This document shows positions 1,064 through 54,128 of a DNA stretch of 64,000 bases, one piece after another. A model generated the notes under the pieces. The model ran no database searches, was not told where the DNA came from, and worked only from the letters and a program-made list of their open reading frames with translations. Source of the stretch: Coriobacteriia bacterium (GTDB taxonomy: Bacteria > Actinomycetota > Coriobacteriia > Anaerosomatales > JBAZZO01); contig JBAZZO010000010.1 in assembly GCA_041658765.1 (NCBI GenBank), forward strand, positions 2,360 through 66,359, read 5' to 3'. Position 1 is the stretch's first letter; every line of letters starts with the position of its first letter. A program made the translations under genes and the position numbers.

Positions 1064-1068
1064 CTAGA

Positions 1069-4294: not shown

Positions 4295-4295
4295 C

Positions 4296-4581: not shown

Positions 4582-4636
4582 GTTTCCTTAGTCCAAGGAC
4601 ACATCTGGCATATTGTTTCCTTGCGCCAAGGACACA
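4582..4636. repeat. tandem imperfect repeat, 2 copies, 32-bp period
   Basis: GTTTCCTTAGTCCAAGGACACAT (4582-4604) and GTTTCCTTGCGCCAAGGACACAT (4614-4636) are 20/23 identical. They sit in a locally AT-richer non-coding patch. Confidence 0.7.
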
Positions 4637-4721
4637 TTACGAAGACATCGACGTCGAAGGCGGCATCATTCACGTCATGCCCGCACGGGCTTGGATGCTA
4701 GGGGTGTAGGCGCCCTGCCGC

Positions 4722-5660: not shown

Positions 5661-5782
5661 GAAGGAGCCGGCGGTATGTCCGATGGTACGCGAGGCCTCA
5701 TAGACAGCGATCTGCTCAAGAAGCTCGGCGTAGATCGTCTGGACTTCGAGCGGCTGACGCTGCAGGGGTTCACCTCCTTGTA

Positions 5783-5816
5783 GTTATACGCACAATACGT
5801 CGATGCTGCGTATAAC
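5783..5816. promoter_or_regulatory. perfect 10-bp inverted repeat (operator or hairpin)
   Basis: GTTATACGCA (5783-5792) and TGCGTATAAC (5807-5816) with a 14-bp spacer. It is AT-rich and lies between the stop of the oxidoreductase gene and the SD of the NTase gene. Confidence 0.3.
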
Positions 5817-5828
5817 ACAAGTCGAGCG

Positions 5829-6749: not shown

Positions 6750-7447
6750 TCTGCGCCCTTGAGGGAAGCGATCGCGGATGGGCTGAACCCCTTGGCGATC
6801 AGCCACACCGCCAGAACCATCTCCTGCAAGAAGATCGGGAGATTCAAGACGATCTGGGGCGCCGACATGGGATCGATGGCCTGGAACACGACCAAGATGC
6901 TTGCCGTGAAGCCCAGCGTGACTGCAACGATCCCCCAACCGGACAACCATCGAGGGATGAGCCTCGATCGATAGAACACGAGGTAGTACATCAGGCCGGC
7001 TGGGTAGAAGGCCAAGGTCCCTGCCATGCCCGCCCAACTCCGGACCGCCATCAGCAGTGCGCCTGAGGCTTGAAGGTACGACGAAGCCGGAGCGCCGGCC
7101 TCCACGAGCCCACGACTCAATGTCACCATCGATAGCACCGCGATCGCCCCGATGCTGTAGAGAACTGCCTCGATGATCCTCAAGCCGACGGCGCCGAGCG
7201 ACAGACCCTCGCTGTATCGCCGCAACACGGGATACAGCGCGATCGCGATGCTGGCGGACGCGAAGAACGCGACCAGCCCGAAGAGCGCTCCCGCAGCCAC
7301 CTGGTTCTGGTGTGCGGCGATCTTGGCAAGGATGTCGGCCCCTTTGAGGATCGGATCCAGAAGCACCACCCTGCCGAGCAAGCTTGCAGTCGTAGCGACT
7401 ATGAAGAGCACTCCTGCGACTACCGCTGTTCGCCTGTCTTTGCTCAT
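6746..7447 (-). CDS. DUF4386-like polytopic membrane protein (paralog 1)
   Basis: Paralog of 8041..8742. Shared features: N-terminal DRR.A...GVL(F/Y)IV and C-terminal L(I/V)PRWLS.WG...QEMVLA(V/I)WLIAKGFSP. ATG 7447 is preferred over TTG 7471 because of an SD-like GGGAAG and because it aligns with the paralog start. Confidence 0.6.
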   Translation of the reverse strand: MSKDRRTAVVAGVLFIVATTASLLGRVVLLDPILKGADILAKIAAHQNQVAAGALFGLVAFFASASIAIALYPVLRRYSEGLSLGAVGLRIIEAVLYSIGAIAVLSMVTLSRGLVEAGAPASSYLQASGALLMAVRSWAGMAGTLAFYPAGLMYYLVFYRSRLIPRWLSGWGIVAVTLGFTASILVVFQAIDPMSAPQIVLNLPIFLQEMVLAVWLIAKGFSPSAIASLKGAE

Positions 7448-7549
7448 GATCGACTTCCCATTCCTCGTCAACTCTCGTGTGTCCCGTCCTGAGAACCTGA
7501 CCGAGACGTGTCAGGTTGAAGCTCTCTTGCTAGGTGGCGTGCTCCACCC

Positions 7550-7882
7550 CTAGACGAATGCCACAACGGCCAGGGTGCCTACGACGGCCGCTTCGGCGGC
7601 GAGAGCGCCCGCAGCAGCAGGACCGATCTTCCGGTACGTGTAGCCCGCCATGACCGAAAGCAGCACGAATCGCACGACCTGGCCCACGGCCGGTCCGCCA
7701 GCCTGAAGTCAGGCGAAGCCGGACGCGACCACGAGGCCCCCCGCCACCAGACAGACTCCCGCCAGCACCCGCGGCGACAACTGCTTGCGCCTGCCCCTCG
7801 CGGCGTACCAGATGGCGAAGGCGACGAACACGACGATCCCCGCGAGCATGGTTGCGATGGGCACAAAGAACTTGCTGTCCAC
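7550..7882 (-). pseudogene. small membrane-protein ORF interrupted by an in-frame TGA
   Basis: Not in the track because both halves are <60 aa. GGAGGTGA SD, then GTG 7882: VDSKFFVPIATMLAGIVVFVAFAIWYAARGRRKQLSPRVLAGVCLVAGGLVVASGFA, then TGA (7709-7711). The same frame continues LQAGGPAVGQVVRFVLLSVMAGYTYRKIGPAAAGALAAEAAVVGTLAVVAFV to a TAG at 7550-7552. Confidence 0.3.
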
Positions 7883-8040
7883 GCCGATCTCACCTCCGTC
7901 TGACGATGCTTGTCCCGTGCGGCGTGCCTGGCGTCTGGCGCTCGACCGCGCGCCGACACTGGCATAGAGCGCAAACCTTGAACGTACGTCAGGTTGACGT
8001 GCCTGCTACGCGCGCCCCAGCCCGCGAAGCCGGCCGCATC

Positions 8041-8742
8041 TCACGCAGCGAGTGGCAGCCGATCGCCTTCGGGAGCGATCGTGCCGGGGCTGAAGCCCTT
8101 GGCGATCAGCCAGATCGCGAGCACCATCTCCTGCACCGCGAGCGGGAACATCAGGAAGTCGAGCGAGAGGCCCGCCATCCGCGCGAGGGGCGCTACGAGG
8201 TAGAAGACCGCTCCGACAAGTCCCCAGATCGAGAGCCATCGAGGGACGAGTCGCGCGCGAAAGAGCAGCCAGTAGAACATGAGAGCGCCGATGACGAAGG
8301 GCAGCGCGATGAGCTGTTCCCACACCAGCCCCTCGGCGGTCTGCAGCATCGCCGCGACCGGAGCGGCCGCGGCCGACGGCGCGGCGCTCATGGCGATGAG
8401 CACGAGCCAGATGAATGCGCTGATGACGTACGTCATGCCCTCGAGTGCTCCTCGGAAGATGACGTAGCCCATCGAGAGCACTTCGCTGAAGCGGCGGCCG
8501 ATCGGATAGAAGACCGCGGGCAGAGCCGACAGCGCGAAGCCCATGGTGAGCACGAGGAGCGCGCCGACGACCGTCGCGGTGCGGTGAGCGGCGATCTGCG
8601 CCAGGATGTCCGTGCCGGCGGCGAACGAAGGCATGATGGCCATGCCTAGCACGCCCGAGGCGGTGCCGACGATGTAGAGCACGCCGATGATGGTGGCAGC
8701 CCGGCGATCGGTGATCGCGCCGTCCGTTCGCTTAGCCGACAT
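8041..8742 (-). CDS. DUF4386-like polytopic membrane protein (paralog 2)
   Basis: Track ORF, 233 aa, hydrophobic multi-pass, paralogous to 6746..7447. It is the last gene of the ArsR-led operon. Confidence 0.6.
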   Translation of the reverse strand: MSAKRTDGAITDRRAATIIGVLYIVGTASGVLGMAIMPSFAAGTDILAQIAAHRTATVVGALLVLTMGFALSALPAVFYPIGRRFSEVLSMGYVIFRGALEGMTYVISAFIWLVLIAMSAAPSAAAAPVAAMLQTAEGLVWEQLIALPFVIGALMFYWLLFRARLVPRWLSIWGLVGAVFYLVAPLARMAGLSLDFLMFPLAVQEMVLAIWLIAKGFSPGTIAPEGDRLPLAA

Positions 8743-8998
8743 CGCGCATCATCTTCTCGATGGACTCGACCGACGTGCGGATCGCGCCGATGTCGGCCTG
8801 CATGCTCGACTGCGTCTCGCGCGTCTCTTGGGCGAGTCTGGTGTACTCGGCGTTCAGCTCCTCGAACTGCGCGCCGCTGCGCGACTTGATCTCCTCCATC
8901 TGGATCTGGTGACGCCGACGCGAGGGCGTGGTGACCACGCTGATCCCCAGGATCACGAACATCACGACGAGAAACGCCGCGGGTCCATCGATCGTCAT
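8732..8998 (-). CDS. hypothetical single-TM coiled-coil protein
   Basis: Track ORF, 88 aa. N-terminal TM helix (AAFLVVMFVILGISVV) followed by a charged helical region. It overlaps both neighbours (4 nt and 11 nt), consistent with operon membership. Confidence 0.45.
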   Translation of the reverse strand: MTIDGPAAFLVVMFVILGISVVTTPSRRRHQIQMEEIKSRSGAQFEELNAEYTRLAQETRETQSSMQADIGAIRTSVESIEKMMRDVG

Positions 8999-9333
8999 TG
9001 CTTTCCCCTTCCGGTTGGTTCGCTGTCCGCGCTCAGGGTCTTCGTCGCATCGGTGACGCGCTCGGGCGTCAGGTGCTCGTCGAAGTCCGTCACGCTGAAG
9101 AAGCGAAGCGCCTTTCCGTCTTCCGAGATCTCGTGGCGTCCGACCACGAGTCCCGCCTTCTCCAGTACCTGCAGGTGCATGTGGAGGAGCGGACGTCCGA
9201 TCCCGAGCTCCCGGGCCAACTCGCTGACGTAGCTCTCACGACTTCTCAGGGCTGCGAGGATCCGCAGCCGATGAGGGTTCGCAAGGGCGCTCAGCATCTG
9301 GAGCAACTGGTCGCCGGTCCGATCGTCCGTCAT
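8995..9333 (-). CDS. ArsR/SmtB-family HTH transcriptional regulator
   Basis: Track ORF trimmed to ATG 9333 (AAAGGAGAGGAC SD). LSALANPHRLRILAAL...YVSELARELGIGRPLLHMHLQVLEKAGLV is the ArsR-type wHTH. Confidence 0.75.
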   Translation of the reverse strand: MTDDRTGDQLLQMLSALANPHRLRILAALRSRESYVSELARELGIGRPLLHMHLQVLEKAGLVVGRHEISEDGKALRFFSVTDFDEHLTPERVTDATKTLSADSEPTGRGKQ

Positions 9334-9549
9334 GTCCTCTCCTTTACCTGTCAGCGTATCCTGACACGTGATGTTCCAACGTGTCAACACCAATTCGCGA
9401 AGAATCTTCCGCCAGGGGCAAAGGAAGAAGCCCCGGTCAAAGCGACCGGGGCTTCGATCAGTTCGAGTGCGGGCGCGATCCTCCGTTTGCGTGTGTCAAC
9501 GCCGGGTAGTATTCTCGGTACTACCATCGGCACTACCGCAAGGACCACC

Positions 9550-9825
9550 ATGGGCAAGATCAACATCTCGCTTCCCGACGGCATGCTCGAGGAGATCGAC
9601 CGCCGAGCAAGCGCAGCCGGCGCCACCCGCAGCGGCTTCCTCCAGGACGCCGCGGGACACTACCTGACCGCGCTCGACGAAGAGGCGGCGTGCGCCGCCC
9701 GGGCCAAGCGTGTTGGTCACGCACTGCAGAAGATGCGCTCGCTCGCGCCGGTGGTGGGCGCGCCGGGCTCGGCGAAAGCCATCCGCGAGATCCGCGATGC
9801 ACCGTCGCGTTGGGAGCAGCGGTGA
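9550..9825 (+). CDS. vapB: ribbon-helix-helix (CopG/VapB-type) antitoxin
   Basis: C-terminal 91 codons of track ORF 8998..9825. MGKINISLPDGMLEEIDRRA...RSGFLQDAA is an RHH motif. GTGA overlap with the downstream PIN gene. Confidence 0.7.
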   Translation: MGKINISLPDGMLEEIDRRASAAGATRSGFLQDAAGHYLTALDEEAACAARAKRVGHALQKMRSLAPVVGAPGSAKAIREIRDAPSRWEQR

Positions 9826-10247
9826 GCGGCAGCGGTCCCCGCTATGTGGTTGTCGACAGCTCGGTCGCCTTCAAGTGGTTCTGCAGCGACGACGAGAGTT
9901 CCGTCGATGAGGCCCTCGCGCTGTTCGCCGACCACCTCTCGGGCCGCATCACACTCATCGCACCGGCCCACCTGCCCGCCGAGGTGCTCAATGCCCTGGG
10001 ATGCCGCCCGAAGGTGACCTCGACGCAACTGGTCACCGCCGCTGAAGGTCTGGCCGAGAGCGAACTGCTCTACCCTGCGTGGGACCGTGATCTCCTCTGC
10101 GAGGCCGCGGTGCTCGCTCGCAAGCACAAGCTCACCATCTACGACGCACTCTTCCCTGCGCTCGCGATCCAGCTCGGCTGCGAGTTGGTCACCGCGGACA
10201 GGGCTCACGCTCGGCTGAAGGAGTGCGCGGTCCGGCTACTGCCCTGA
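9822..10247 (+). CDS. vapC: PIN-domain ribonuclease toxin VapC
   Basis: Track ORF 9690..10247 trimmed to GTG 9822. YVVVDSSVAFKWF..., ...TIYDALFPALA... and ...LVTADRAHARL supply the conserved acidic residues of the PIN fold. Confidence 0.75.
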   Translation: MSGSGPRYVVVDSSVAFKWFCSDDESSVDEALALFADHLSGRITLIAPAHLPAEVLNALGCRPKVTSTQLVTAAEGLAESELLYPAWDRDLLCEAAVLARKHKLTIYDALFPALAIQLGCELVTADRAHARLKECAVRLLP

Positions 10248-10275
10248 GACGCCACAAGCCCCCGCCGGGCGCCGA

Positions 10276-10671
10276 CTACTCATGCTCCGCGAAGAGACGG
10301 CCATGAACCGCGAGCTCGACCACCGGGACTGCTTCGACTCTGTCGGCGAGCGGATAGCGCTTCTCACCAGGGTAGAGCACGGCGACGCGATCCAACCCCA
10401 AGTCATCCAGAGCGATCCTGATCGACGGCGTCATCTTCGGCGCATCGGAACGCTTGCACTCCACCCCCACCAAGCACTCTCCCCGGCGCAGGATCAGGTC
10501 GATCTCGGCACCCTGATGGGTCGCCCAGAAGAACGCCTCGTCATGCGGCTCGCTCGCCAACACCTGCTCGATCGCGAACCCCTCCCAGGACGCGCCGAGC
10601 TTCGGATGACTCACCAAGGCCTTCGGAGTGTCGATGTGGTCGGACAGCACCACGTGAATCCGCCATCGCAC
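10276..10671 (-). pseudogene. C-terminal fragment of an AAA_14/DUF4143 ATPase gene
   Basis: Only the DUF4143-like C-terminus is present (..HPKLGASWEGFAIEQVLA...). The Walker-A N-terminal two thirds seen in the full-length paralog 10806..12131 are missing. The break coincides with a decayed tRNA-end repeat (10697-10728). Confidence 0.5.
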
Positions 10672-10696
10672 AACTGTTTTTCATGGTGTTCCGGAT

Positions 10697-10728
10697 CCGG
10701 CCTGACCTGCGATTCCGGTAAGGTGGCC
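10697..10728. repeat. decayed copy of the tRNA-Met 3' flank plus 3' end (putative old att site)
   Basis: CCGGCCTGACCTGCGATTCCGGTAAGGTGGCC versus 13834-13869 CCGGTCTGACCTGCGATTTCTTTGGTAGCGGGGGCC. The first 19 nt match 18/19, then similarity to the tRNA 3' end is gapped. Confidence 0.45.
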
Positions 10729-10805
10729 ATGGTGACCCTACGCGAAGTACAGATTCCGCAGAATGCGCCCTTGACAGACGGACACCTGCGCTCTAGCGTG
10801 GCGGC

Positions 10806-12131
10806 ATGAGCCTGCACCCGGTACTCGACGAGAAGCTGAGCGCTGCACTGGCGGAAGTACCGCCGGTCGCGCTCACCCGGCGCGACGCCCGGCTGCCAGC
10901 CGTGGCCGGCAAGGTGCACGCGGTGATCGGGATGCGGCGCGCGGGGAAGACGATGTTCCTGCGCCAACTGCTGGACGAGCGCCGGGCTACCCTACCTGCT
11001 CCGCAGGCGGTCTATCTCAGCTTCGACGACGACCGGCTAGCCGGCCTCGAGTTGGAGCAGCTCGACTTCCTGCTCGAGGAATACTACCGGCGCTATCCCG
11101 CGATGCGAGGGCGCAAGACAGTGAGCTGGTTCCTCGACGAGATCCAGCTCGTGCCCGGCTGGGAGCGTTTCGTCCGACGGGTACTGGACTCAGAGAGAGT
11201 CGAGATCGTCGTCTCCGGCTCCTCGGCGCGTATGCTCTCGCGCGAGGTCCACACCTCCCTGCGCGGTCGCGGGATGGCGACCGTCATCCGGCCCTTCAGC
11301 TTCCGTGAGTTCCTGCGCTACCGAGGTGAGGAGCCCGGCAGCGAACCTCGACGCTGGACACCGGCCGAGCGGTCGCTGATCGAGAAGCGCTTTCGGGAGT
11401 ACCTGGTCGAGGGCGGGTTCCCCGAGACGCAGGGAATACCAGCCACGCTTCGAATCGAGCTCTTGCAGGGCTACGTGGATACCGTGCTCTTCCTCGACGT
11501 TGTCGAGCGCTACGGGGTGTCGCAGGTGGCGGCCCTCCGCTGGCTAGTGCGTCAATGTTTGCGCAATCCGGCCGGGAGCTTCAGCGTCCACCGCCTGCAC
11601 CAGGACCTGAAGGCCCAAGGGCACGGCGTGGCGAACGAGGCCGTGCACGCGATGCTCGGCCATCTCCTGGACGCCTTCCTGCTCAGCGCCGTGCCGCTTG
11701 CGACCGAATCGGAGCGCCGTCGCAACTCGAACCCGCGCAAGCTCTATCCCGCAGACCCTGGCCTCATCAAGGCCTTCGACGCCAGCGGCCGCTCGAACGT
11801 CGGACACGCACTCGAGACCGCCGTGCTCAACGAACTGGAGAGGCGCGGGATGGAGGTCGGCTACGTGAAGACGGGTGACGGGCTGGAGGTGGACTTCCTC
11901 GCGCGCCGACCGGCTGGCGGAGAGGAATTGATCCAGGTGTGCGCAGACCTGTCGAGTCCAGAGACGCGCGCGCGTGAGCTGCGAGCCTTGACCGCAGCAG
12001 CGGAAGACCATCCGCGTGCTACGCAACGATTGCTGGTGCTCGACCGGGATGCGCTCGCACGCGCCGACGCGCCAGGGGTCGACGTACTGCCTGCCTACGA
12101 GTGGCTCCTCGCGGCACCGGAAGACGACTGA
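10806..12131 (+). CDS. AAA+ ATPase with DUF4143 C-terminal domain (AAA_14 family)
   Basis: Track ORF, 441 aa. AVIGMRRAGKTMFLRQ is the Walker A. WFLDEIQ is the Walker B. The C-terminal part is DUF4143-like. Confidence 0.7.
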   Translation: MSLHPVLDEKLSAALAEVPPVALTRRDARLPAVAGKVHAVIGMRRAGKTMFLRQLLDERRATLPAPQAVYLSFDDDRLAGLELEQLDFLLEEYYRRYPAMRGRKTVSWFLDEIQLVPGWERFVRRVLDSERVEIVVSGSSARMLSREVHTSLRGRGMATVIRPFSFREFLRYRGEEPGSEPRRWTPAERSLIEKRFREYLVEGGFPETQGIPATLRIELLQGYVDTVLFLDVVERYGVSQVAALRWLVRQCLRNPAGSFSVHRLHQDLKAQGHGVANEAVHAMLGHLLDAFLLSAVPLATESERRRNSNPRKLYPADPGLIKAFDASGRSNVGHALETAVLNELERRGMEVGYVKTGDGLEVDFLARRPAGGEELIQVCADLSSPETRARELRALTAAAEDHPRATQRLLVLDRDALARADAPGVDVLPAYEWLLAAPEDD

Positions 12132-12137
12132 ACCAGC

Positions 12138-12199
12138 CCTTCGTTGGACAGCCCGTTGGACACTCGTGCGCCAAAGCGAACAGGCCAGACACGGTTACC
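12138..12199. repeat. 62-bp direct repeat, copy 1
   Basis: CCTTCGTTGGACAGCCCGTTGGACACTCGTGCGCCAAAGCGAACAGGCCAGACACGGTTACC. It has 3 mismatches to 13773-13834. It starts 6 nt after the ATPase stop. Confidence 0.85.
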
Positions 12200-12340
12200 G
12201 GAAAAAACCACACGCGCACTCCCACGAGACCAGCTTACCTTTGACGCCACGTGGGAGGCAGGTCTGACACGCAATCGGCGGGCGGTCACCAGCTTACGGG
12301 GGTCCGCGACGCGGAAGGCTTGCCAACGTTCTCCAGCTTA

Positions 12341-12382
12341 TTTAGACTTCAACCACGAAGTCTAAATAGCGCTCAACGCTAT
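12341..12382. promoter_or_regulatory. two adjacent palindromes upstream of fic
   Basis: TTTAGACTTC-aaccac-GAAGTCTAAA (12341-12366) is immediately followed by ATAGCG-ctcaa-CGCTAT (12366-12382). Both are AT-rich and lie 25-65 nt upstream of the fic start. Confidence 0.3.
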
Positions 12383-12407
12383 TCAACTCGGCTGAGTAGG
12401 GGGACTG

Positions 12408-13559
12408 ATGCGCCGAGGACTGTCGGGGAGGTACGAGGTCAGCACGATCGGCGGCGAGACCTTTCGCGCCTTCGTGCCGGAACCGTTGCCACCGAATCCC
12501 CCGCTTGACCTGTCCGCACTGCAAAGATCTCTCGAGCGCGCGTCCATCGCCATTGGCCGGCTGGACAGCGTTTCGACCCTGCTGCCGGACACGGCGCTGT
12601 TCCTATACACCTACGTACGCAAAGAGGCGGTGCTGTCTTCGCAGATCGAAGGCACCCAGTCCTCCCTCTCGGACTTGCTGCTGTTCGAACTCGAGGAAGC
12701 GCCGGGCGTACCGTTCGACGACGTGGTAGAAGTCAGCAACTACGTTGCCGCGCTGGATGAAGGCCTTGCTCGGCTGAGGGGCGGCTTCCCCATCAGCGCA
12801 CGACTCATTCGAGAGATCCATGCGGTTCTCCTCTCCCGAGGTCGCGGCAGTGAGAAGCAGCCCGGTGAGTTCCGCCGGAGTCAGAACTGGATCGGCGGGA
12901 CGAGGCCTGGGAACGCGGTCTACGTGCCTCCGCCTCACGAGGAGGTCCAGCCGTGCATCGCCGCGTTAGAGCGATTCCTCCACGACGAGGGCTCGAGCCT
13001 GCCCCTTCTGGTCAAGGCGGCGCTTGCACACGCCCAGTTCGAGACCATCCACCCTTTCCTTGACGGCAACGGGAGAGTGGGCCGACTCTTGGTCACGTTG
13101 CTGCTGTGCGAGGGCGGGGTGCTTCGTGAGCCGCTGCTCTATCTCAGTCTGTACATGAAGCAGAATCGGGATGAGTACTACCGTCTGCTCAGCAGGTGTC
13201 GAACCGAGGGCGAATGGGAGGCGTGGGTCGCCTTCTTCCTCGAGGGAGTCGCGGAAACGGCCGACGACGCGGTCGGGACGGCGCGCAGCCTGGTCGGCAC
13301 GTTCGAGAGTGATAGGCGACGGATCCAGGACCTCGGACGCAAGGCCGGCTCGGCTCTGCGCGTGCACGACGCTCTGAAGTCCAGGCCGGTCCTGCTGCTG
13401 CCCGATGTCGTGACACGCTCCGGGCTGTCGTTCCCAGCCGCTGCATCCGCGATGGACTCCCTTGAGAAACTGGGAATCGCTCGCGAGGTGACCGGCAAGA
13501 AGCGGAACCGCGTGTTCGCGTACTCGGAGTACCTTCGCCTGCTCTCGGAAGGAACCTGA
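12408..13559 (+). CDS. fic: Fic-family protein (AMPylase-type) with N-terminal inhibitory motif and C-terminal wHTH
   Basis: Track ORF, 383 aa. HPFLDGNGRVGR is the canonical Fic motif HxFx(D/E)GNGRxxR. SSQIEGT matches the (S/T)xxxE(G/N) auto-inhibition helix. AGGGGG SD. Confidence 0.85.
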   Translation: MRRGLSGRYEVSTIGGETFRAFVPEPLPPNPPLDLSALQRSLERASIAIGRLDSVSTLLPDTALFLYTYVRKEAVLSSQIEGTQSSLSDLLLFELEEAPGVPFDDVVEVSNYVAALDEGLARLRGGFPISARLIREIHAVLLSRGRGSEKQPGEFRRSQNWIGGTRPGNAVYVPPPHEEVQPCIAALERFLHDEGSSLPLLVKAALAHAQFETIHPFLDGNGRVGRLLVTLLLCEGGVLREPLLYLSLYMKQNRDEYYRLLSRCRTEGEWEAWVAFFLEGVAETADDAVGTARSLVGTFESDRRRIQDLGRKAGSALRVHDALKSRPVLLLPDVVTRSGLSFPAAASAMDSLEKLGIAREVTGKKRNRVFAYSEYLRLLSEGT

Positions 13560-13772
13560 CCCCGATGGCCCTGAACCCCATCGTCTTCACCGAGAACGTC
13601 GTCAGGAGCTTCCTGCGCTACCCGCTGACGGCCTACTCGCTGGCCAATCGCAGCACACGCCTGTAGCCGACGGCCTGAATCACCGATCGGCTTCGAGCGG
13701 AATGGGTGATCGGCTTGGACCGGAATACGCAGCTAGGGCAGCGTCAGGCGGTGCGGCGGCGGTCTGTCCCTA

Positions 13773-13834
13773 CCTTCGTTGGACAGCCCGTTGGACACTC
13801 GTGCGCCAAAGCAAACAGGTCAGACACGGTTGCC
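13773..13834. repeat. 62-bp direct repeat, copy 2 (21 nt from tRNA 3' end)
   Basis: CCTTCGTTGGACAGCCCGTTGGACACTCGTGCGCCAAAGCAAACAGGTCAGACACGGTTGCC, 59/62 identical to copy 1. Confidence 0.85.
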
Positions 13835-13855
13835 CGGTCTGACCTGCGATTTCTT

Positions 13856-13856
<1 letters not shown>
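13817..13856. terminator. bidirectional hairpin terminator downstream of tRNA-Met
   Basis: AGGTCAGAC (13817-25) pairs with GTCTGACCT (13837-45) around an 11-nt loop. On + it is followed by GCGATTTCTTT, and on the other strand by GTTTGCTTTGG. Confidence 0.45.
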
Positions 13857-13932
<76 letters not shown>

Positions 13933-14039
13933 ACGATTCCGGACTTCTCGCGCTAGCACACACCTTCTCCACAAGCGCGGACTAGGATGTTAGCACCCGC
14001 TCCAGTACGAGGCAACACGTGCCGATGTTCACATTCGGC

Positions 14040-31651: not shown

Positions 31652-31762
31652 GGGCCAGGCCCATCTCCTTCCACACCGTCTGTCGCCGGAGCGTCCGCTC
31701 GTCGGCGTTCGCGGCATACATTGTGCCACCCGTCACGGTATCTTGCCGAACGGCGGAACAGC

Positions 31763-31778
31763 ACCCGTATATACGGGT
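31763..31778. promoter_or_regulatory. perfect 16-bp palindrome upstream of the secreted-protein locus
   Basis: ACCCGTATATACGGGT lies ~95 nt upstream of gene A. The half-site CACCCGT recurs at 31727-33. An 8-bp-stem hairpin ACGCACCC-acc-GGGTGCGT (31832-50) abuts the SD. Confidence 0.3.
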
Positions 31779-31872
31779 CGTGGCTCGCTTGATGCACTAG
31801 TGGGGTCCAGCACGCCAAAGAAAGCTTGCAGACGCACCCACCGGGTGCGTGCCCCACAAGGAGGGAACGGAC

Positions 31873-32283
31873 ATGAAGAGAGCCCTGCTGGTCGCCACGG
31901 TGGTCGCCGTCGCGATGTTCGGAATCGTCGCGTTCGCGATGGCAGCCAACCCGGAGAGCGTGGCGGTCACGGCGTTCGCCAACCCGAAGATCACGATGAC
32001 CGTCTCCACCACCACGGTCGACTTCGGCAACGTCGACCCGGGAGTGGCCCAGGCGACGAAGAACGTCTCGCTCAACGTCGACTCGAACAAGGACTTCACC
32101 GTGACGAAGAACAAGACCGCCGACGCCGCGATGGGGCTCACCACCTCCCTCGGGCTCTCGACCGCCGGCACCAAGGGCGCGGGGAACGCGTTCACCGACA
32201 CCTACGGCTTGACGCTCCCGTGGTCGGTCAGCGCGAGCAGCACGGCCAACACGACGATCGTCTACACCGCGGCGCAGAACTAG
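31873..32283 (+). CDS. small secreted beta-rich protein A (putative major surface/fibre subunit)
   Basis: Track ORF 31849..32283 trimmed to ATG 31873 (AAGGAGGG SD). Signal peptide MKRALLVATVVAVAMFGIVAFAMA|A. The mature ~112 aa are T/S/N/V-rich with no Cys. It is a paralog of B. Confidence 0.6.
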   Translation: MKRALLVATVVAVAMFGIVAFAMAANPESVAVTAFANPKITMTVSTTTVDFGNVDPGVAQATKNVSLNVDSNKDFTVTKNKTADAAMGLTTSLGLSTAGTKGAGNAFTDTYGLTLPWSVSASSTANTTIVYTAAQN

Positions 32284-32307
32284 CCCGCGCAGTACCTACC
32301 TCTCCCC

Positions 32308-32341
32308 GGACGCCCGCTCCCGCTTCTCGGGGCGGGCGTCC
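32308..32341 (+). terminator. GC-rich hairpin after gene A (attenuator/partial terminator candidate)
   Basis: GGACGCCCGC (32308-17) pairs with GCGGGCGTCC (32332-41), a 10-bp stem starting 25 nt after the stop of gene A. There is no clear U-tract. Confidence 0.35.
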
Positions 32342-32413
32342 GTGCGCGTGGAAGCCCGATGGCGGATACTTGTCCGCGAGGTCGCGATGGACTCGAGCAT
32401 GGGAGGTGACCAG

Positions 32414-32818
32414 GTGGGCTGGAAGCCGGTTCTGGCGCTCGCCGCGCTTCTCGCGTTCGCCGCCGCAGTGCCGCCGGCCCAGGCCGGCGTGGTCTCCTCC
32501 GCGGCCACGGGTCAGCTCACCGTCTCCGTCACCCCCACCTCATGGGCGGTCGGCTCGCTCGACCCCGGCAAGAGCGCCACGGCCACCGTCCAACTCTCGG
32601 TCACGTACAACAACGCGTACACCATCACCCGGGATGTGATCGAGAGCTCTCCGGAGACGATGGGGCTGTCGGTCAGCGGTCCCGGCGTGGGCGCGAAGCC
32701 CAGGACCGGCCCGCCGACCCGCACGTACACGGACACCGTCGTGGTCGCGATGCCTTGGACGGCGACGCCCGGCTCGTCTCACGCCGGCTCGATCCGCTAC
32801 ACCGTCGTCCCCCAGTAG
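32414..32818 (+). CDS. small secreted protein B (paralog of A)
   Basis: Track ORF 32342..32818. I prefer GTG 32414 (GGGAGGTG SD 5 nt upstream); ATG 32387 is an alternative. Signal peptide ..WKPVLALAALLAFAAAVPPAQA|G. It shares ..TV(S)V...(G)S(L)DPG.. and YTDT....MPWT....I.YTV with A. Confidence 0.55.
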   Translation: MGWKPVLALAALLAFAAAVPPAQAGVVSSAATGQLTVSVTPTSWAVGSLDPGKSATATVQLSVTYNNAYTITRDVIESSPETMGLSVSGPGVGAKPRTGPPTRTYTDTVVVAMPWTATPGSSHAGSIRYTVVPQ

Positions 32819-32994
32819 CGTCCTGGCGCTATCGCCCGCATCTCGCATCGTCCCGCCGAACGGTCGCCTCCGAGCGACCGCTCGTCGTTTCGTCGCGCTA
32901 GAATGACCGCTCCGCGCTAATCTCAGCCGTTCGTCTGCCGATAGGAGAGTGTGTAAGGATGAGCGGATAACCTGGTCTCGGGGAGGTGCGAGCG

Positions 32995-33291
32995 ATGCGG
33001 AGGACGCGGGTCACGACGGTCGTGGTGCTCGCTCTCGCACTGGCGCTCGGCACCGTGCCGTCCGCCATCGCCTCTTCCGCCGGTTCGGTCTCCGTCTCCG
33101 CGACGATCCGCCCTAGCGCCGTCTTCCGCCTCACCGACACCGCCGTGCTCGTGCGGGCCAACGCCGGGTGGCACCTCACCCTGGAGACCCCGCAGGGCGC
33201 GCGCACCGTGGAGGGTGCGCCGACATCGGGAGAGTGGAAGAACATCCCGCTGCCGGCCGGTTCGACCGGCTTCGCGCTCGCGCTCGACTAG
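32995..33291 (+). CDS. small secreted protein C
   Basis: Track ORF 32986..33291 trimmed to ATG 32995 (GGAGG SD 8 nt upstream). Signal peptide ..VVVLALALALGTVPSAIASS. The mature ~70 aa contain ANAGWHLTLE. The stop overlaps the stop of the convergent gene. Confidence 0.5.
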   Translation: MRRTRVTTVVVLALALALGTVPSAIASSAGSVSVSATIRPSAVFRLTDTAVLVRANAGWHLTLETPQGARTVEGAPTSGEWKNIPLPAGSTGFALALD

Positions 33292-34328
33292 GAGATCCCC
33301 CCGCCCGCCTGCTCGGCCTTGCGCGCGCGCTTCTCCGCTTGCCTGGCGGCGGATCTCACCGCGCCGCGCCACGCCAGCCACAAGGCCAGCCCCCCGGCCA
33401 CGACCGAGACGGCGACGGCAAGCCACAGCGGCACCACCCAGACCGTGCGCGTCTTCCTCACCTCGACGGGCAGCTCGCCGGGAGCGGCACCCTCCCGCGC
33501 GTACGACACGACCAGACGTACGGTGTATCGCCCGGGAGCGAGACCGCGAAGTCCCAGCTTCCCCGAGCGTTCGATGTTCGTCCCCGCGTACACGGGCGAC
33601 GACTCCAGCACACCCCGCCGGACGCGCTCCACTTCGTTGCCGTCCCAGACCGTGAGGGAACCGTCGACCACGGTGTCGACGTTGCCCAGGTTGTACACGT
33701 CGAAGACGTAGGGAAGCCTGTCGCCTATCAGCAGGTTGCGCACCACGAACGGCCGCACTTCGATACGCTGCGCGACGACGCCCTCGACGCGGAAGCGGAT
33801 CCGGGCGCCGAGACGGCCGGCGACGTTCGACGAGACACCGGGACTGTCCTTCGGCAGGTCGAACATCTCGAAGAAGAGGAGCACCTGATGGTCGCCGGGG
33901 GCCACGCCGGCGGGGACGGTGAACGAGAACTCCACCGGCACGCGCTGGCCGGGATCCAATTCCAGATAGGGTGTGTTGCCGATCGTCTTCGTCTGCTCGG
34001 GCACCTTGATCACGAGCCAGGACGCAGGCGAACGGAGGAACGTCTCCGGGTCGTTGCGGTCGGGAGCCACGTATCGCGGATTGCCCTTCGCGTCGACAGT
34101 CTGGTTCGCGGCATAGACGAGGACCTTTAGCGGCTCGTCTCCGTCGTTCGTCACCTCGAGCGTGCCCTCGCCCGACTGCCCCGACGCCACATGGAACTCG
34201 AACGTGCCCGTCGACAGGCCGACCGTGCGATCGGCGCGGGCGGACGGGGAGAGGGCCAGTAGGGAGAGCAGCGCCACGGTGGCCGCCGCCGCGAACCGTG
34301 CGCGGGCGGACCGGGCGGCGCGAGTCAT
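33288..34328 (-). CDS. large surface protein with signal peptide and C-terminal TM anchor (DUF916/DUF3324-like architecture)
   Basis: Track ORF, 346 aa. Signal peptide ..ATVALLSLLALSPSARA, then a beta-rich ectodomain (..YLELDPGQRVPVEFSFTVPAGVAPGDHQVLLFFE..). The C-terminal TM is VWVVPLWLAVAVSVVAGGLALWLAW, followed by a basic tail. The ATG shares 1 nt with the regulator stop. Confidence 0.6.
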   Translation of the reverse strand: MTRAARSARARFAAAATVALLSLLALSPSARADRTVGLSTGTFEFHVASGQSGEGTLEVTNDGDEPLKVLVYAANQTVDAKGNPRYVAPDRNDPETFLRSPASWLVIKVPEQTKTIGNTPYLELDPGQRVPVEFSFTVPAGVAPGDHQVLLFFEMFDLPKDSPGVSSNVAGRLGARIRFRVEGVVAQRIEVRPFVVRNLLIGDRLPYVFDVYNLGNVDTVVDGSLTVWDGNEVERVRRGVLESSPVYAGTNIERSGKLGLRGLAPGRYTVRLVVSYAREGAAPGELPVEVRKTRTVWVVPLWLAVAVSVVAGGLALWLAWRGAVRSAARQAEKRARKAEQAGGGIS

Positions 34329-35071
34329 CAGATGCCGACCGCCTCGCGGAACCCTCGCACCTGCCGCCGCGCGACCGGGATCTGGGTCTCGTCGCGATCG
34401 GCCACGACGACCGCATACCCGCCGTCGGCGCGCAGGATCTCCTTGATCCGGTTCAGGTTGATCATGTAGCTGCGGTGGATCCGGTTGAACGACTCCTTGG
34501 ACAGCTTCTCCTCGAGCTCGCTCACCGTGAGATCGACCAGGTACTGGTTCTCGAACGTGTGGACGTACGTCGACTTGTTCTTCGCCGAGACGTAGACGAC
34601 GTCGTCGATGGAGAGGAGCACCGTGCGGCCGCCTTTGCGCACGGCCAGCTTACGGAACTCGCCCTCGGCACCGCCGTCGCCCTCGACGGGACGCGGCCTG
34701 TTGCGCACGAGGCTCTTCACGCGCGCGGAGAGTTCGAGGATGTTGAACGGCTTGGTGACGTACTGCTGGACGCCCTGCTTGAACGCGAGGATCTTCGCGA
34801 GGTCCTGCGTCTTGGCGGTGAGCATGATGACCGGGAGGTGCGCCGTGTTCGGGTTGTTGCGGATCTCCATCAGGGTCATCCAACCATCGACCCTGGGCAT
34901 CATGATGTCGAGGATGACGACGTCTATCGTCTCACGGCCGATGATGTCGAGCGCCTCGGCGCCGTCACCGGCGCCGTAGACCTTCATCCCGTCGGTCTCG
35001 AGACCGAGCCGAATCATCTCGACGATCGAGGTGTCGTCGTCGACGACCAGGACATTGACGGCCGTGTCCAT
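34328..35071 (-). CDS. response regulator, REC + LytTR DNA-binding domain
   Basis: Track ORF 34328..35140 trimmed to ATG 35071. VLVVDDD...VVILDIMMPRVDG...MLTAK is the receiver domain. ..VVYVSAKNKSTYVHT......SFNRIHRSYMINLNRI is LytTR. Confidence 0.85.
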   Translation of the reverse strand: MDTAVNVLVVDDDTSIVEMIRLGLETDGMKVYGAGDGAEALDIIGRETIDVVILDIMMPRVDGWMTLMEIRNNPNTAHLPVIMLTAKTQDLAKILAFKQGVQQYVTKPFNILELSARVKSLVRNRPRPVEGDGGAEGEFRKLAVRKGGRTVLLSIDDVVYVSAKNKSTYVHTFENQYLVDLTVSELEEKLSKESFNRIHRSYMINLNRIKEILRADGGYAVVVADRDETQIPVARRQVRGFREAVGI

Positions 35072-35158
35072 CGGTCCCGCCCTTCCGTCTCCCCCAGTGA
35101 ACCGCACGTCGCCCCGGAGTATACCGCACGTCACCCACAACTAACCACGCGGACCATG

Positions 35159-37520: not shown

Positions 37521-39851
37521 ATGCCGCGCGCGCCACGACCCCGCCGCTCCCGCGCCACGTTGCGGGTCGAGATGCTCTCCCTCACAGGCTTGGCGGCGGG
37601 AACGCTGATCGCGTTCAAGACGCTCGCTCAGGTCCGCGTCGGTCCCGGCTGGGACTCGTACGCCTTCCTGGTCAACGCCGCCGAGTTCGCCGGGAAGGGC
37701 GTCGGGTACACCGAGCTGCACCGCCCGCCGTTCCTCTCGTTCCTGGTCTCTCTCGTCTTCCGGTTCACCGCGCGCAACGCCGCGGTCGTCCAGTGGGCCG
37801 ACGCGGCTCTCTCGCTCGCGGCGATCGTCGCGTTCTACCTGCTGCTGCTGCGCCGGTTCTCCGCGCCCAAGGCGGCGACAGGAGCTCTCGCCCTGCTCGC
37901 CTTCCCGCCGCTCTGGGACTACATCGGGACCGGCTACACGGACTTCGCGTCAGTCGGCCTGAGCATGTGGGCCCTGGTCTTCCTCACCAAAGCGACCGAG
38001 GAGGACAGCCGCTGGTACCTGGCGGCGGCGCCCGTCTTCGTCCTCGCGGTCCTCACTCGCTACACGGCCCTGCTCTTCGCGTTCCCCATGCTGTTGTGGC
38101 TCGTCTTCCGAGCGCGCCCGTTCCGCGACGCAGGCCGCATCGGTGGCGCGATCGCGCTCGCCATCGCGACGTACGTGCCGGCGGGGGTCTTCTACCACCG
38201 TCGCTTCGCCGACATGCTCTTCCCGTTCGCCGTGGCACTCGGAGCGGTCCAGGACACGTCGGCGGTCACACCGGTCACAGCGGCCGGCCTGCTCGGGACC
38301 GGCTTCGCGGCACAGGCCAAGTCGCTCGCAGCGCTGGTGCTCCCGTCACCGGTCTCGCCGTTGGCCTGGCTCATCGTGGTCGGGGCGGCCGCGGGCCTGA
38401 TCTCGCGCGTCCTGCCGCCGAACCGGTCCCGGCTCCCGTGGAGCCGGATTCTCCTATCGGCTGCGGCGGTCGCCGGGCTCGGATACGGGCTGGTCAAGGG
38501 CGGGCTCTTCGCCGGCCAGTTCCTCATACCGATAGTCATCTACCTCGTGTGGAGATGGGTCGGCCCGCGTGACCTCGACGGCGCGGACCCGCGCACCCCG
38601 CGGGGAACCGCACTCGCCGGGGTCATGATCGCCTGGGCCCTCGCGTACGCGGACTTCCACGCCCTGGACCTCTTCCGGGTACCGCGCTACGTGATCATGG
38701 TCGCGCCGACGCTCGTCTTCCTGTGCCTGCTCGGCTGGGACTCCTGGTCCAAGACGCTCGGCGACCCGCGCGCGCGGACGGCGGGAGGCGCGCACCGATC
38801 GACTGCCGCCGTGTGGCTGTCCGCACCGCTCGTCGCGCTCGTACTCGCCTCCGTCGCGCTCAACGCCGCGCACACGTCGCGAACGCCGGACTACCTCGTC
38901 GCCGGGGCCAGATCGACGGCGCGATGGCTCGTGAAGCACGACCCCGGCGTCTCCTCCGAGACCGTCTACTCCGACCTCTGGCCGCTCACCAGCTGGTATC
39001 TCGGCTCGGCTGCTCGGCCCATGCCGTTCTTCACGAACCTCACGGCGTTCGACCACGAACTGGACAAGAACGCCGCGGCGTACTACGTGACGACCCGCTC
39101 CAAGCCGTTCAAGGGGTACGACGCCGTCGACGCGGCGCAAGGGGTCACCGTCCTCCGGCGTCGTCCCGGCGCCCGGCCCCGCCCCTTGCCGCGCGTCCTC
39201 TATCTCGGCCGATCGTGGCAGAACTACCTCGAGAGGCTCACCGGATACGGCATCTACCTCGATTTCGACGCGGGACAGTACGGCTGGGTCGGCACGGCCT
39301 ACCTCGATGCGTTCACCCCCGAGCAGCTGGCACGATACCCCGTGGTCGCCGCGTACGGCGTCAGATGGCACGAGCGCGACCGCATCGAGGGCCTACTCGC
39401 GCGATACGTGCGCGACGGCGGCTCTTTGATCCTCGACGCATCGCGCAACATGGGCGACCCGCCTTTCGTCCTCTCCGACACCATCCTCTTCGGCACCCTC
39501 ATCCGACGAGGCGGCGTCGAACCCGATGCGCCGCTCACCGTCGCGCCGTGGTTCGTCGAGCGCCATCCTGGACTCGGCCGGATCGCCGCCGCTCCTTTCG
39601 TCGACGAGGGAGGCGGCCGATGGTTCGGCGCTCTCTACGAACCCGTGCGCGTGACGACGCCCGTCCGCGTGCTCGCCCGGATCGCGGGCAAGCCGGCGAT
39701 CCTGATGCAGCCCTTGGGGAAGGGGCGCATCTACTGGATCGGGTACAACCTGGTGTGGCACGCGCAGCTCACAGACAACCGTTCCGAGATGCGGCTCGTC
39801 CGCGCGATAGTGGAAGACGCGCTCTCTCGCGAGACGACGCCGTCGCCATGA
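37521..39851 (+). CDS. GT-C-fold membrane glycosyltransferase (GT39/ArnT/PMT-like) with large C-terminal domain
   Basis: Track ORF, 776 aa. The N-terminal ~430 aa have >=10 TM helices with the loop pattern of polyprenyl-phosphate-sugar-dependent transferases. The soluble C-terminal ~330 aa are unassigned. Confidence 0.6.
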   Translation: MPRAPRPRRSRATLRVEMLSLTGLAAGTLIAFKTLAQVRVGPGWDSYAFLVNAAEFAGKGVGYTELHRPPFLSFLVSLVFRFTARNAAVVQWADAALSLAAIVAFYLLLLRRFSAPKAATGALALLAFPPLWDYIGTGYTDFASVGLSMWALVFLTKATEEDSRWYLAAAPVFVLAVLTRYTALLFAFPMLLWLVFRARPFRDAGRIGGAIALAIATYVPAGVFYHRRFADMLFPFAVALGAVQDTSAVTPVTAAGLLGTGFAAQAKSLAALVLPSPVSPLAWLIVVGAAAGLISRVLPPNRSRLPWSRILLSAAAVAGLGYGLVKGGLFAGQFLIPIVIYLVWRWVGPRDLDGADPRTPRGTALAGVMIAWALAYADFHALDLFRVPRYVIMVAPTLVFLCLLGWDSWSKTLGDPRARTAGGAHRSTAAVWLSAPLVALVLASVALNAAHTSRTPDYLVAGARSTARWLVKHDPGVSSETVYSDLWPLTSWYLGSAARPMPFFTNLTAFDHELDKNAAAYYVTTRSKPFKGYDAVDAAQGVTVLRRRPGARPRPLPRVLYLGRSWQNYLERLTGYGIYLDFDAGQYGWVGTAYLDAFTPEQLARYPVVAAYGVRWHERDRIEGLLARYVRDGGSLILDASRNMGDPPFVLSDTILFGTLIRRGGVEPDAPLTVAPWFVERHPGLGRIAAAPFVDEGGGRWFGALYEPVRVTTPVRVLARIAGKPAILMQPLGKGRIYWIGYNLVWHAQLTDNRSEMRLVRAIVEDALSRETTPSP

Positions 39852-54053: not shown

Positions 54054-54128
54054 TGGCTGGGGCGGTAGGATTCGAACCTACGGATGGAGGATCCAAAGTC
54101 CTCTGCCTTGCCGCTTGGCTACGCCCCA
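54054..54128 (-). tRNA. tRNA-Gln(TTG)
   Basis: The reverse complement reads TGGGGCGTAGCCAAGCGGCAAGGCAGAGGACTTTGGATCCTCCATCCGTAGGTTCGAATCCTACCGCCCCAGCCA. It folds as a cloverleaf with anticodon loop cuUUGga and an encoded CCA. Confidence 0.85.

Follow-up and report, generated by a model that had tools for sequence, protein, structure and literature searches.

We examined a locus of five genes, named A to E, in a metagenome-assembled genome (MAG) of a Coriobacteriia bacterium. The locus lies at positions 31873-35071 of a 64,000-nucleotide stretch of this genome, which is hereafter called the window, and the region around it has ~70% G+C. An earlier sequence-only reading had described here a set of small secreted proteins, a membrane-anchored protein and a regulator. 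All five open reading frames are present at the coordinates described, an independent gene caller returned the same genes (136, 143, 98, 346 and 247 aa), and Shine-Dalgarno-like sequences precede all of them. The genes are:

31873..32283, plus strand: gene A, 136 aa (open reading frame and gene call), a small secreted protein with a signal peptide, an SVAVTAFANP segment and a ~107-aa immunoglobulin (Ig)-like domain, hereafter the A-type domain, that runs to the C-terminus (..IVYTAAQN)
32414..32818, plus strand: gene B, a paralogue of A by BLASTP and by a hidden Markov model (HMM) of the A-type domain; 143 aa in the gene call
32995..33291, plus strand: gene C, 98 aa, secreted, with a mature part of ~70 aa that has an A-like N-terminal segment and an invariant A-N-x-x-W motif; a small family of its own
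33288..34328, minus strand: gene D, 346 aa, WxLIP-like; it has a signal peptide, a pair of Ig-like beta-sandwich domains of which the first is a divergent DUF916, a transmembrane helix and a basic cytoplasmic tail
34328..35071, minus strand: gene E, 247 aa, a REC-LytTR response regulator whose stop overlaps the D start (TGATG)

The start of B is ambiguous, being either ATG 32387, the choice of the gene caller, or GTG 32414, which has the better Shine-Dalgarno spacing. D is identical to the NCBI protein WC971_07155 (100% identity). As had been noted before, the stop of E and the start of D share base 34328, and the stops of C and D overlap in the sequence CTAG at 33288-33291. Signal peptides were assigned by eye and from the N-terminal helices of models built with AlphaFold2 (AF2). 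A, B and C all lack Cys, and lipoproteins were rejected because the lipobox Cys is absent. In agreement with the sequence-only reading, there was no kinase, sortase or LPXTG gene among the genes called within +/-10 kb of the locus. Kinase genes were not called in five related loci either, and no outer-membrane usher was found among the genes called within the same distance or in related loci, the host being a monoderm actinobacterium. Two known types of surface fibre were also rejected: sortase-dependent pili, as there is no sortase, LPXTG or Cys-containing pilin motif, and a TasA/SipW-type fibre, as there is no SipW-type peptidase nearby and no match to the camelysin/TasA family.

The anchored protein D and its secreted partners

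D had been proposed to be a C-terminally anchored protein of the DUF916 type, and its family supports this assignment. The 93 D homologues found are 337-407 aa long and come from Coriobacteriia/Actinomycetota MAGs in nearly all cases, plus Parvivirga hydrogeniphila. When 38 full-length homologues (38-49% identity) were searched against Pfam, 28 of them matched PF06030 (WxLIP_PGBD, formerly DUF916) at an E-value of <=0.01, the best value being 7.6e-8, and several D homologues carry a precomputed PF06030 annotation. NCBIfam returned no family for D. The AF2 model of D, made from a 38-sequence alignment, has a predicted local distance difference test (pLDDT) score of 93 and shows the expected architecture, namely an N-terminal helix (3-25), two beta sandwiches, a C-terminal helix (301-345) and a basic tail; this cytoplasmic tail is conserved in the family. 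Two elements of D are used below:

33369..33440, minus strand: transmembrane helix of D, ~residues 297-320, VWVVPLWLAVAVSVVAGGLALWLAW, followed by the basic tail RGAVRSAARQAEKRARK; supported by the AF2 helix at 301-345
33786..33896, minus strand: long beta-hairpin of D, residues 145-181, GDHQVLLFFEM..loop..GRLGARIRFRV; candidate complementing strand

We compared the model of D with the structures in the PDB using Foldseek. Vibrio cholerae RbmA ranked first by E-value, the Enterococcus faecium WxLIP structures 9i1y and 9i25_C (bound to long WxL) were matched at ~1e-8, and the chaperones of chaperone-usher systems CfaA (class-5 fimbrial), FimC and CsuC were matched at 4e-9 to 5e-7, with DraB also on the list. 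The query-normalised TM-score was highest for the WxLIP chains (0.44-0.45), and the target-normalised TM-score to WxLIP and chaperones was 0.5-0.59. The second domain of D is a confidently modelled Ig-like sandwich, and both domains align to the WxLIP chains (277-284 columns, target-normalised TM-score 0.54-0.59). These results firmly identify D as a remote WxLIP-type protein with respect to its first domain and its overall architecture, and its second domain matches at the level of the fold only. A report on DUF916 proteins beside 'anglerase' metalloproteins (PMC12537917) was considered and has no bearing on the locus.

The long hairpin of D is formed by strands 145-157 and 168-181. Its flexible tip, residues 161-170, is the sole block of low pLDDT in the ectodomain of the AF2 model, and in its second strand, GRLGARIRFRV, hydrophobic residues alternate with Arg. 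Residues G145, D146, F152, F153, R172, R176 and R180 are invariant in the D family. By analogy with the hairpin of WxLIP (PMC10599100) and with the G1 strand of PapD-like chaperones, this hairpin is a candidate for the element that would complete the sandwich of a partner protein.

As for the secreted proteins, A and B had been called paralogues by eye, and BLASTP confirmed this with 30% identity over 105 aa (E-value 2e-10), both of the sequence blocks quoted earlier falling in the alignment; the A-type HMM matched B with 103 bits over positions 2-111. Pfam and NCBIfam contain no family for A, B or C, and a profile of the A family found nothing meaningful among the sequences of solved structures. 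A word-indexed search found few relatives of A. When the mature A-type domain was used for an exhaustive profile search, 374 cluster representatives were obtained at an E-value of <=1e-3, of which 148 reached <=1e-10, with clusters made at 50% identity. In all 150 proteins listed out of these 374 representatives, which are 98-770 aa long, the domain sits at the extreme C-terminus, within a few residues of the end. The large forms bear FixG_C, Ig_VWA7, NPCBM_assoc and MG2 Ig-like repeats, and some mid-size forms carry DUF2808. Relatives of the locus have one multi-domain A-type protein (260-930 aa) and one to three small ones (130-160 aa), and the window has two small forms and no large form. 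The comparison with Csc/WxL clusters made in the sequence-only reading, in which a small and a large partner share one C-terminal domain, thus applies to the relatives, with the new A-type domain in the shared position. As judged from these searches, the A-type domain is a new, unannotated family of ~107-aa C-terminal Ig-like domains. A 761-aa A-type protein labelled as coming from an Elusimicrobia MAG (MDA3792924.1) reflects either a binning error or an occurrence outside Actinomycetota.

The AF2 model of A (pLDDT 84, and >90 in the mature part) is a seven-strand beta sandwich. A-type domains have a single conserved W, which lies ahead of their last strands (PW, corresponding to W88). Ahead of the domain lies a further conserved element:

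31948..31989, plus strand: N-terminal segment of mature A, residues 26-39, with the family consensus GxVxVTAxVN and alternating hydrophobic residues; candidate donor strand

The segment has been conserved in the C-type proteins and in the small ones of the A type. The match to the A-type profile starts at position 2-7 in small proteins and at 9-17 in 19 of 25 multi-domain proteins (11-14 in those of the module loci). Residues 26-39 of A are a candidate for a donor strand.

Protein C had drawn attention by its GWHLTL sequence. This motif is present and belongs to a conserved ANTPWxL element of a small family, and it was not found to mark a WxL domain: the 11 C-type sequences matched no Pfam family, and none matched PF13731 at an E-value of <=10. 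In the alignment of the C family (11 homologues), A-N-x-x-W is invariant (ANAGWHL in the window), and most relatives end in AYWVV. BLASTP found no match between A and C. A profile-profile comparison of the two families with hhalign gave a probability of 75% and an E-value of 2.5e-5 over 44 columns, covering the N-terminal ~44 mature residues, and the C HMM also matched the N-terminus of one A-type protein.

Conserved synteny, the regulator E and a candidate operator

The sequence-only reading had predicted that these genes would occur together in related genomes. We scanned species-representative genomes with a 10-sequence D alignment as the query, which yielded 15 non-redundant loci, and determined their content by six-frame BLAST and HMM searches. 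The genes were kept together in every related genome examined. E followed by D with overlapping stop and start was found in all 15 loci, at least one small A-type gene was present in each of them (15/15), and a C-type gene on the opposite strand, converging on D, was found by the C HMM in 12 of the 15. A second protein ending in the A-type domain, with a length of ~260-330 aa or ~930 aa, is frequent among the loci. A reciprocal look-up from A-type proteins yielded three loci and found the same module in two further genomes, namely the cultured Anaerosoma tenue, which has an 892-aa A-type protein, three small A-type proteins, D and E, and another MAG. The chromosomal slot is constant across some 20 genomes of Coriobacteriia, with a gltD-like/DHODB pair on one side and DUF711-ACT, DUF951, PGA_cap and V-ATPase genes on the other. 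A chance co-location of unrelated open reading frames was rejected on the basis of this synteny across about 20 loci.

Within this constant frame, the number of genes varies in the surface-protein half of the module, and, measured against the proteins of the window, E is conserved at a median identity of 76.5%, D at 49% and A and C at 36% each. Judged by these values, the module combines a conserved regulator with fast-evolving surface components. At the nucleotide level, the overlap between E and D reads TGATG in the window and in 10 relatives (11 loci), TAGTG in one locus and GTGA in three, which upholds the translational coupling of the regulator to D proposed earlier. In the MAG RCMX01000006.1 (loci L001/L002), a gene for an 885-aa FixG_C/Ig_VWA7 Ig-repeat protein (2189-4846), with no match to the A-type domain, lies directly upstream of E. 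With it, also directly upstream of E, are a gene at 1593-2195 for a 200-aa protein with a weak match to exosortase (EpsH) and a family-2 glycosyltransferase gene. A second surface-protein sorting system may lie beside the module in this genome.

E was recognised as a REC-LytTR regulator in the sequence-only reading, and Pfam agrees, with Response_reg (PF00072) at 3e-27 and LytTR (PF04397) at 7e-25, both above the gathering scores; the BtsR model matches E at 1e-30. The receiver domain is complete, with an acidic pocket and the ILD-IMMP aspartate. By aligning the regions upstream of E, we found a 10-nt motif, GAYGWNYGGY, that is conserved at this position in the relatives. Regular-expression and position weight matrix (PWM) scans located the following sites in the window:

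35123-35132 and 35101-35110, minus strand: two direct repeats GACGTGCGGT in the E promoter region, a 10-bp repeat with a 12-bp spacer; predicted LytTR operator
32877..32935, minus strand: motif sites between B and C, ahead of C: GACGAACGGC at 32926-32935, a weak GCGGAGCGGT at 32906-32915 and GACGAGCGGT at 32877-32886
31694..31734, minus strand: two weak copies of the motif ahead of A, namely GACGAGCGGA (31694-31703) and GACGGGTGGC (31725-31734)

The sequence GACGTGCGGT has exactly two copies in the 64 kb. Both fall in the gap of 87 bp that precedes the start codon of E, at a distance of 22 bp from each other, and a -10-like hexamer, TATACT (35118-35123), adjoins the first of them. Near the copies upstream of C there is a TAGAAT at 32899-32904 on the plus strand. 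Since a sigma-70 consensus scan of the locus called no promoter, both hexamers represent our reading by eye. The two copies upstream of A score 9.0 and 6.9 bits with the PWM, which is weaker than the other sites, and may be due to chance.

Across the 15 loci, the motif sits upstream of E, of C (in 12 loci), of the small A-type gene and of the large gene, always on the E/D strand. On this strand there are 66 matches in 34 kb of module compared with 43 in 187 kb of flanks (1.94 vs 0.23 per kb, an enrichment of about 8-fold; binomial p=8e-27, a value that overstates the independence of the loci because they are related, and to that extent weakens the case for an operator). On the opposite strand the densities are 0.62 per kb in the module and 0.26 per kb in the flanks. 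The commonest spacing between neighbouring sites is 20 bp (nine cases), followed by 28-29 bp (six), 49 bp (four) and 21-22 bp (three). In some loci the motif forms inverted pairs, or else a palindrome of 16 bp, CGAACGGTACCGTTCG, which lies ahead of C in L010, L012 and L013, and the sites ahead of A-type and large genes have a longer common consensus, GGAATAGnGTGACGAGCGGCACA. No RNA family of Rfam was matched between 31500 and 35400, and the motif is thus not a known riboswitch or leader.

The known operators of LytTR regulators such as AgrA, ComE and PlnC consist of 9-10-bp direct repeats about two helical turns apart. Because the repeats fit this design and E is the only DNA-binding protein of the module, we infer that E autoregulates and controls the surface genes, with GAYGWNYGGY as the likely operator. 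The motif lies around the -10-like element of E and downstream of it, which may point to autorepression at that promoter.

Several other features of the region were recorded. A GC-rich hairpin after A, reported by the sequence-only reading, was found again:

32307..32342, plus strand: hairpin 3' of A, stem of 11+4 bp, without a U tract (folding and terminator scan)

The 77-nt region with this hairpin has a folding energy of -43.5 kcal/mol (z=-4.0), and none of 200 shuffled sequences was equally stable. A terminator consensus scan did not call it as a terminator, and the only terminator-like site in that scan lies within gene A on the wrong strand. As the relatives have the gene order large-small-C, a conserved position of the hairpin could not be established, and its earlier reading as a divide between major and minor fibre subunits is conjectural. 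The region upstream of A contains a perfect palindrome of 16 bp, ACCCGTATATACGGGT, at 31763-31778 with TATATA at its centre, and a 7-bp inverted repeat, CGCACCC-ACC-GGGTGCG, at 31838-31856 just ahead of the Shine-Dalgarno sequence. An Rfam scan of the whole window found two tRNAs only (13859-13932 and 54057-54128). The first of them marks a G+C boundary, positions 1-14000 having 59-66% G+C compared with ~70% elsewhere in the window, and an integrated element or a gene block of different composition is possible there. At 37521-39851 (plus strand), 2.4 kb from E, lies a gene for a 776-aa PMT_2-family (GT39/ArnT-like) glycosyltransferase, followed up to ~44 kb by LPG_synthase_TM, GT4, methyltransferase and polysaccharide deacetylase genes; the relative L002 also has a PMT_2 gene near the module (position 1-48). 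Given the Thr/Ser/Asn-rich composition of A and B, O-glycosylation of the secreted subunits is conceivable.

Interpretation and alternatives

What was observed, namely the genes and their paralogy, their conserved synteny, the fold of D and its link to a known family, the new domain family and the enrichment of the motif, can be accommodated in one scheme, in which the locus would be a self-contained and self-regulated surface display module of a Gram-positive (monoderm) Coriobacteriia bacterium. D would be exported by the Sec pathway and retained in the membrane through its C-terminal helix, so as to expose its two WxLIP-like Ig domains. A and B, and in the relatives also the Ig-repeat protein of 260-930 aa, would be secreted and then caught at the surface by their shared C-terminal ~107-aa domain. 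Most likely, D would insert a beta-strand or hairpin into the sandwich of its partner, in the way predicted for WxLIP-WxL, of which a crystal structure now exists, and known from PapD-type chaperone-subunit complexes. C would be a half-size relative that keeps the A-like N-terminal segment and serves as an accessory subunit. E, translated in tandem with D, would bind the GAYGWNYGGY repeats found at the E promoter and ahead of C, A and the large gene, and in this way control the whole module, and the kinase feeding E would be encoded elsewhere. In this scheme, the membrane-anchored D would act as a scaffold or chaperone for the A-type domain, which it would capture by beta-strand complementation, and would so display A, B and the large Ig-repeat protein of the relatives; we favour this explanation, drawn by analogy with known systems, with moderate confidence.

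Several observations weigh against this explanation. D itself falls below the Pfam threshold for PF06030 (E-value 0.0057; 17.1 vs 27.3 bits), and its second domain does not match DUF3324 (PF11797, HBD) in any of the 38 full-length homologues at an E-value of <=0.01. Ig-like folds match promiscuously, RbmA and a transglutaminase also scoring with D, and a D-family profile found no match among the sequences of solved structures, the search with a homologue from Parvivirga (P0043) likewise giving nothing meaningful. The A-type domain has no sequence similarity to WxL, as 21 A-type sequences did not match PF13731 at an E-value of <=10, and the WxL chain of 9i25 is absent from the best 50 fold matches of the A model. 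Together with the same result for the 11 C-type sequences, this speaks against the W-x-L-type identity that had been proposed for A, B and C; A and B have one W each and no W-x-L pair. A 770-aa A-type protein is encoded on its own, far from any D gene (L022, positions 4209-6521 of a Logan SRR28374726 contig), among GDP-mannose and glycosyltransferase genes and with no D or E within 6 kb, which indicates that the A-type domain is not strictly bound to the module. The arrangement of the motif, with direct as well as inverted copies that surround or follow the -10-like element of E, is unlike the classical geometry of LytTR activators. Finally, the physical interaction between D and A, strand complementation and the binding of the motif by E are steps that we infer.

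A different use of the same parts would be a fibre built by donor-strand exchange without an usher, which we regard as possible but rather unlikely. A and B would polymerise head-to-tail by inserting the N-terminal GxVxVTAxVN segment of one subunit into the Ig groove of the next, with D as a membrane-anchored PapD-like chaperone and assembly platform; a multi-domain A-type protein without the N-terminal segment would be the tip adhesin, and C or the N-terminus of D would end and anchor the fibre. The fold matches of D, which include the chaperones CfaA, FimC, CsuC and DraB as well as RbmA, are consistent with this idea. So is the Foldseek list for A, which is headed by the chaperone-usher pilins CfaB, FimG and FimF and contains, lower down, PapE, CsuA/B and MSP/PapD-like Ig domains, but these matches are all weak (E-values >=8.5e-3, with CfaB, FimG and PapE at 8e-3 to 0.1; TM-scores 0.4-0.56). 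The alternating-hydrophobic N-terminal segment is kept in small A-type proteins and in C and lies mostly outside the profile match in multi-domain proteins, which fits this model; nevertheless, AF2 gives A an apparently complete sandwich and places this segment confidently, yet not as a strand. A-type proteins also share a conserved extreme C-terminus, aromatic-T-x-x-Q, and such an end recalls the C-terminal strand of chaperone-usher pilins. The long hairpin of D, with its second strand of alternating hydrophobic residues and Arg, would suit a chaperone, and the Pam pili, for which the same model was put forward in 2026 and which have membrane-anchored FimC/PapD-like chaperones and an RbmA-like transmembrane anchor, offer a precedent (bioRxiv 10.64898/2026.03.03.709456). 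On the other hand, each locus has one chaperone-like gene, fibres are not known from the WxL systems, to which D is most closely related, and polymerisation is here postulated from genes and models. If such a donor-strand pilus did exist, WxL clusters, Pam pili and chaperone-usher pili would be variants of one ancient principle of assembly by strand complementation, and the coupling of a chaperone gene to its own LytTR regulator could provide feedback from assembly to transcription.

It is improbable that the locus is a true but extremely diverged WxL cluster, in which homology to the peptidoglycan-binding WxL domain would extend to the A-type domain, and perhaps to C (ANTPWxL ... YWVV motifs), with a non-covalent attachment to the wall that is stabilised by WxLIP as in Lactobacillales. 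D is a WxLIP homologue, the small and large proteins have a common, strictly C-terminal domain, A-type domains carry the single conserved W before their last strands, and C has the invariant W of A-N-x-x-W-x-L and often a second W near the C-terminus, all of which would fit. Against this stand the absence of a PF13731 match in all 32 sequences, the lack of the dual W-x-L motif in A and B, the position of the long-WxL chain of 9i25 outside the best 50 fold matches of A, and the size of the A-type domain, which is ~107 aa compared with ~180 aa for a small WxL domain (PMC9772566).

We give very little credence to a LytTR circuit in which D would mainly act as a membrane sensor or anti-regulator of E, and A, B and C, instead of being cargo of D, would serve this circuit as secreted effectors or signals. 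Streptococcal LytTR systems do have membrane inhibitors, and the strict E/D overlap in 15/15 loci, the orphan state of E (kinase-free within +/-10 kb), its conservation (76%) far above that of D (49%) or A and C (36%), the conserved basic cytoplasmic tail of D and the motif sites around the E promoter, which suggest autoregulation, would agree with such a circuit, but the complete receiver of E with its ILD-IMMP aspartate points to ordinary control by phosphorylation, the large Ig-Ig ectodomain and the WxLIP relationship of D are better explained by a structural role, and the A-type domain also ends Ig-repeat proteins of 900 aa, which are not signals.

We found no published description of the module in the literature. 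Three aspects of the display module that we favour appear to be new: a WxLIP-type anchor is paired with a novel, unannotated family of C-terminal Ig-like domains; a surface-display system known from Firmicutes is extended to the phylum Actinomycetota; and a dedicated LytTR regulator comes with a recognisable, predicted operator motif. The design principle, C-terminal-domain partners together with a WxLIP anchor, is already known, and all functional steps assigned to it here are putative. The findings suggest that the name of WxLIP understates both the age and the versatility of this scaffold, and that the A-type domain, with 374 clusters at 50% identity, is a sizeable unannotated family. Together with the Pam pili of the candidate phyla radiation (CPR), Coriobacteriia would represent a second monoderm lineage with membrane-anchored PapD-like Ig-Ig proteins beside small Ig-like subunits, and a general Gram-positive mode of assembly by strand complementation without an usher becomes directly testable, with Anaerosoma tenue and Parvivirga hydrogeniphila as cultured hosts. 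In addition, the compact motif gives an orphan response regulator a predicted regulon.

Comparison with known systems

The nearest known systems are the WxL/Csc clusters of Lactobacillales and Listeria (PMC1534035, PMC9772566, PMC10599100). Such a cluster comprises a WxLIP (DUF916-DUF3324-transmembrane helix) and a small and a large protein with a common, strictly C-terminal WxL domain (PMC9772566, PMC10599100). AlphaFold predicts that a hairpin of WxLIP completes the WxL sandwich (PMC9772566, PMC10599100), and a complex of WxLIP with long WxL is in the PDB (9i25). The present module shares with them a protein with a signal peptide, two Ig-like domains, the first of the DUF916 type, and a C-terminal transmembrane helix (~340-380 aa for the WxLIP type, 346 aa for D), secreted partners encoded next to it whose common domain always sits at the extreme C-terminus, a small partner that consists of this domain only and a large partner, here in the relatives, with N-terminal Ig-like or A2M-type repeats, and the absence of dedicated secretion machinery. 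It differs from them in that the partner domain is shorter (~107 aa) and of another family, with neither a PF13731 match nor the dual W-x-L motif, the second domain of D has no DUF3324 match, an LPXTG protein is absent, and there are an extra protein C (70 aa when mature) and a LytTR response regulator whose translation is coupled to that of the WxLIP-like gene. The hosts differ as well: WxL clusters, whose construction is just beginning to be understood, have been regarded as typical of gut and food Firmicutes (91% of the known WxL sequences; PMC9772566), whereas the host here is an environmental actinomycetote (Coriobacteriia, ~70% GC) and not one of the Bacilli. Hassan & Williamson define a WxL cluster by at least one WxLIP and at least two WxL proteins within four genes. 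D, at 346 aa, has the length and topology of a WxLIP (signal peptide and single C-terminal transmembrane helix, 320-380 aa). A, B and C do not match PF13731 at an E-value of <=1, nor do their family sequences at <=10, and we do not file the module as a WxL cluster because its partners fail the defining test of a WxL domain.

The Pam pili of CPR bacteria have PapD/FimC-like chaperones with C-terminal transmembrane helices, an RbmA-like transmembrane anchor and donor-strand exchange (bioRxiv 10.64898/2026.03.03.709456). As in that system, the module here combines a monoderm-type envelope, secreted Ig-like subunits and no usher with a PapD/FimC-like two-domain protein that bears a transmembrane helix at its C-terminus, and RbmA, the counterpart of the Pam anchor, is the top Foldseek match of D by E-value. 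Compared by description, D thus seems to resemble a Pam chaperone or anchor in design only, that is, in its C-terminal transmembrane helix and its place next to genes for Ig-like subunits. Unlike A and B, which are single-domain proteins, Pam pilins have two domains with a linker strand and are reported to be exclusive to CPR; Pam operons contain two chaperones and a separate anchor where there is one D gene here; and filaments and donor-strand exchange were seen by cryo-electron microscopy for Pam but are postulated here. With the Gram-negative chaperone-usher pili (Fim, Pap, CFA/I and Csu), the module shares the fold of D (CfaA, FimC, CsuC, DraB) and, weakly, that of A (CfaB, FimG, PapE, CsuA/B), small subunits with an alternating-hydrophobic N-terminal segment, and the logic of a tip adhesin, in which a multi-domain protein ends in a subunit domain without the N-terminal extension. 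It differs in that there is no outer membrane and the chaperone-like D is membrane-anchored; there is no sequence similarity, the likeness of the module is at fold level, and polymerisation is hypothetical.

With regard to regulation, E has the REC and LytTR architecture of AgrA, ComE, PlnC/D, AlgR and BtsR, its own promoter has 10-bp direct repeats with a ~12-bp spacer (GACGTGCGGT-N12-GACGTGCGGT) to which E would bind, and adjacent genes for secreted and surface proteins are its predicted targets. Unlike those regulators, E has no adjacent gene for a histidine kinase or peptide pheromone, the repeats at its promoter overlap or follow the -10-like element and are at times found as inverted pairs, and the E gene overlaps the gene of a surface-anchored Ig protein.

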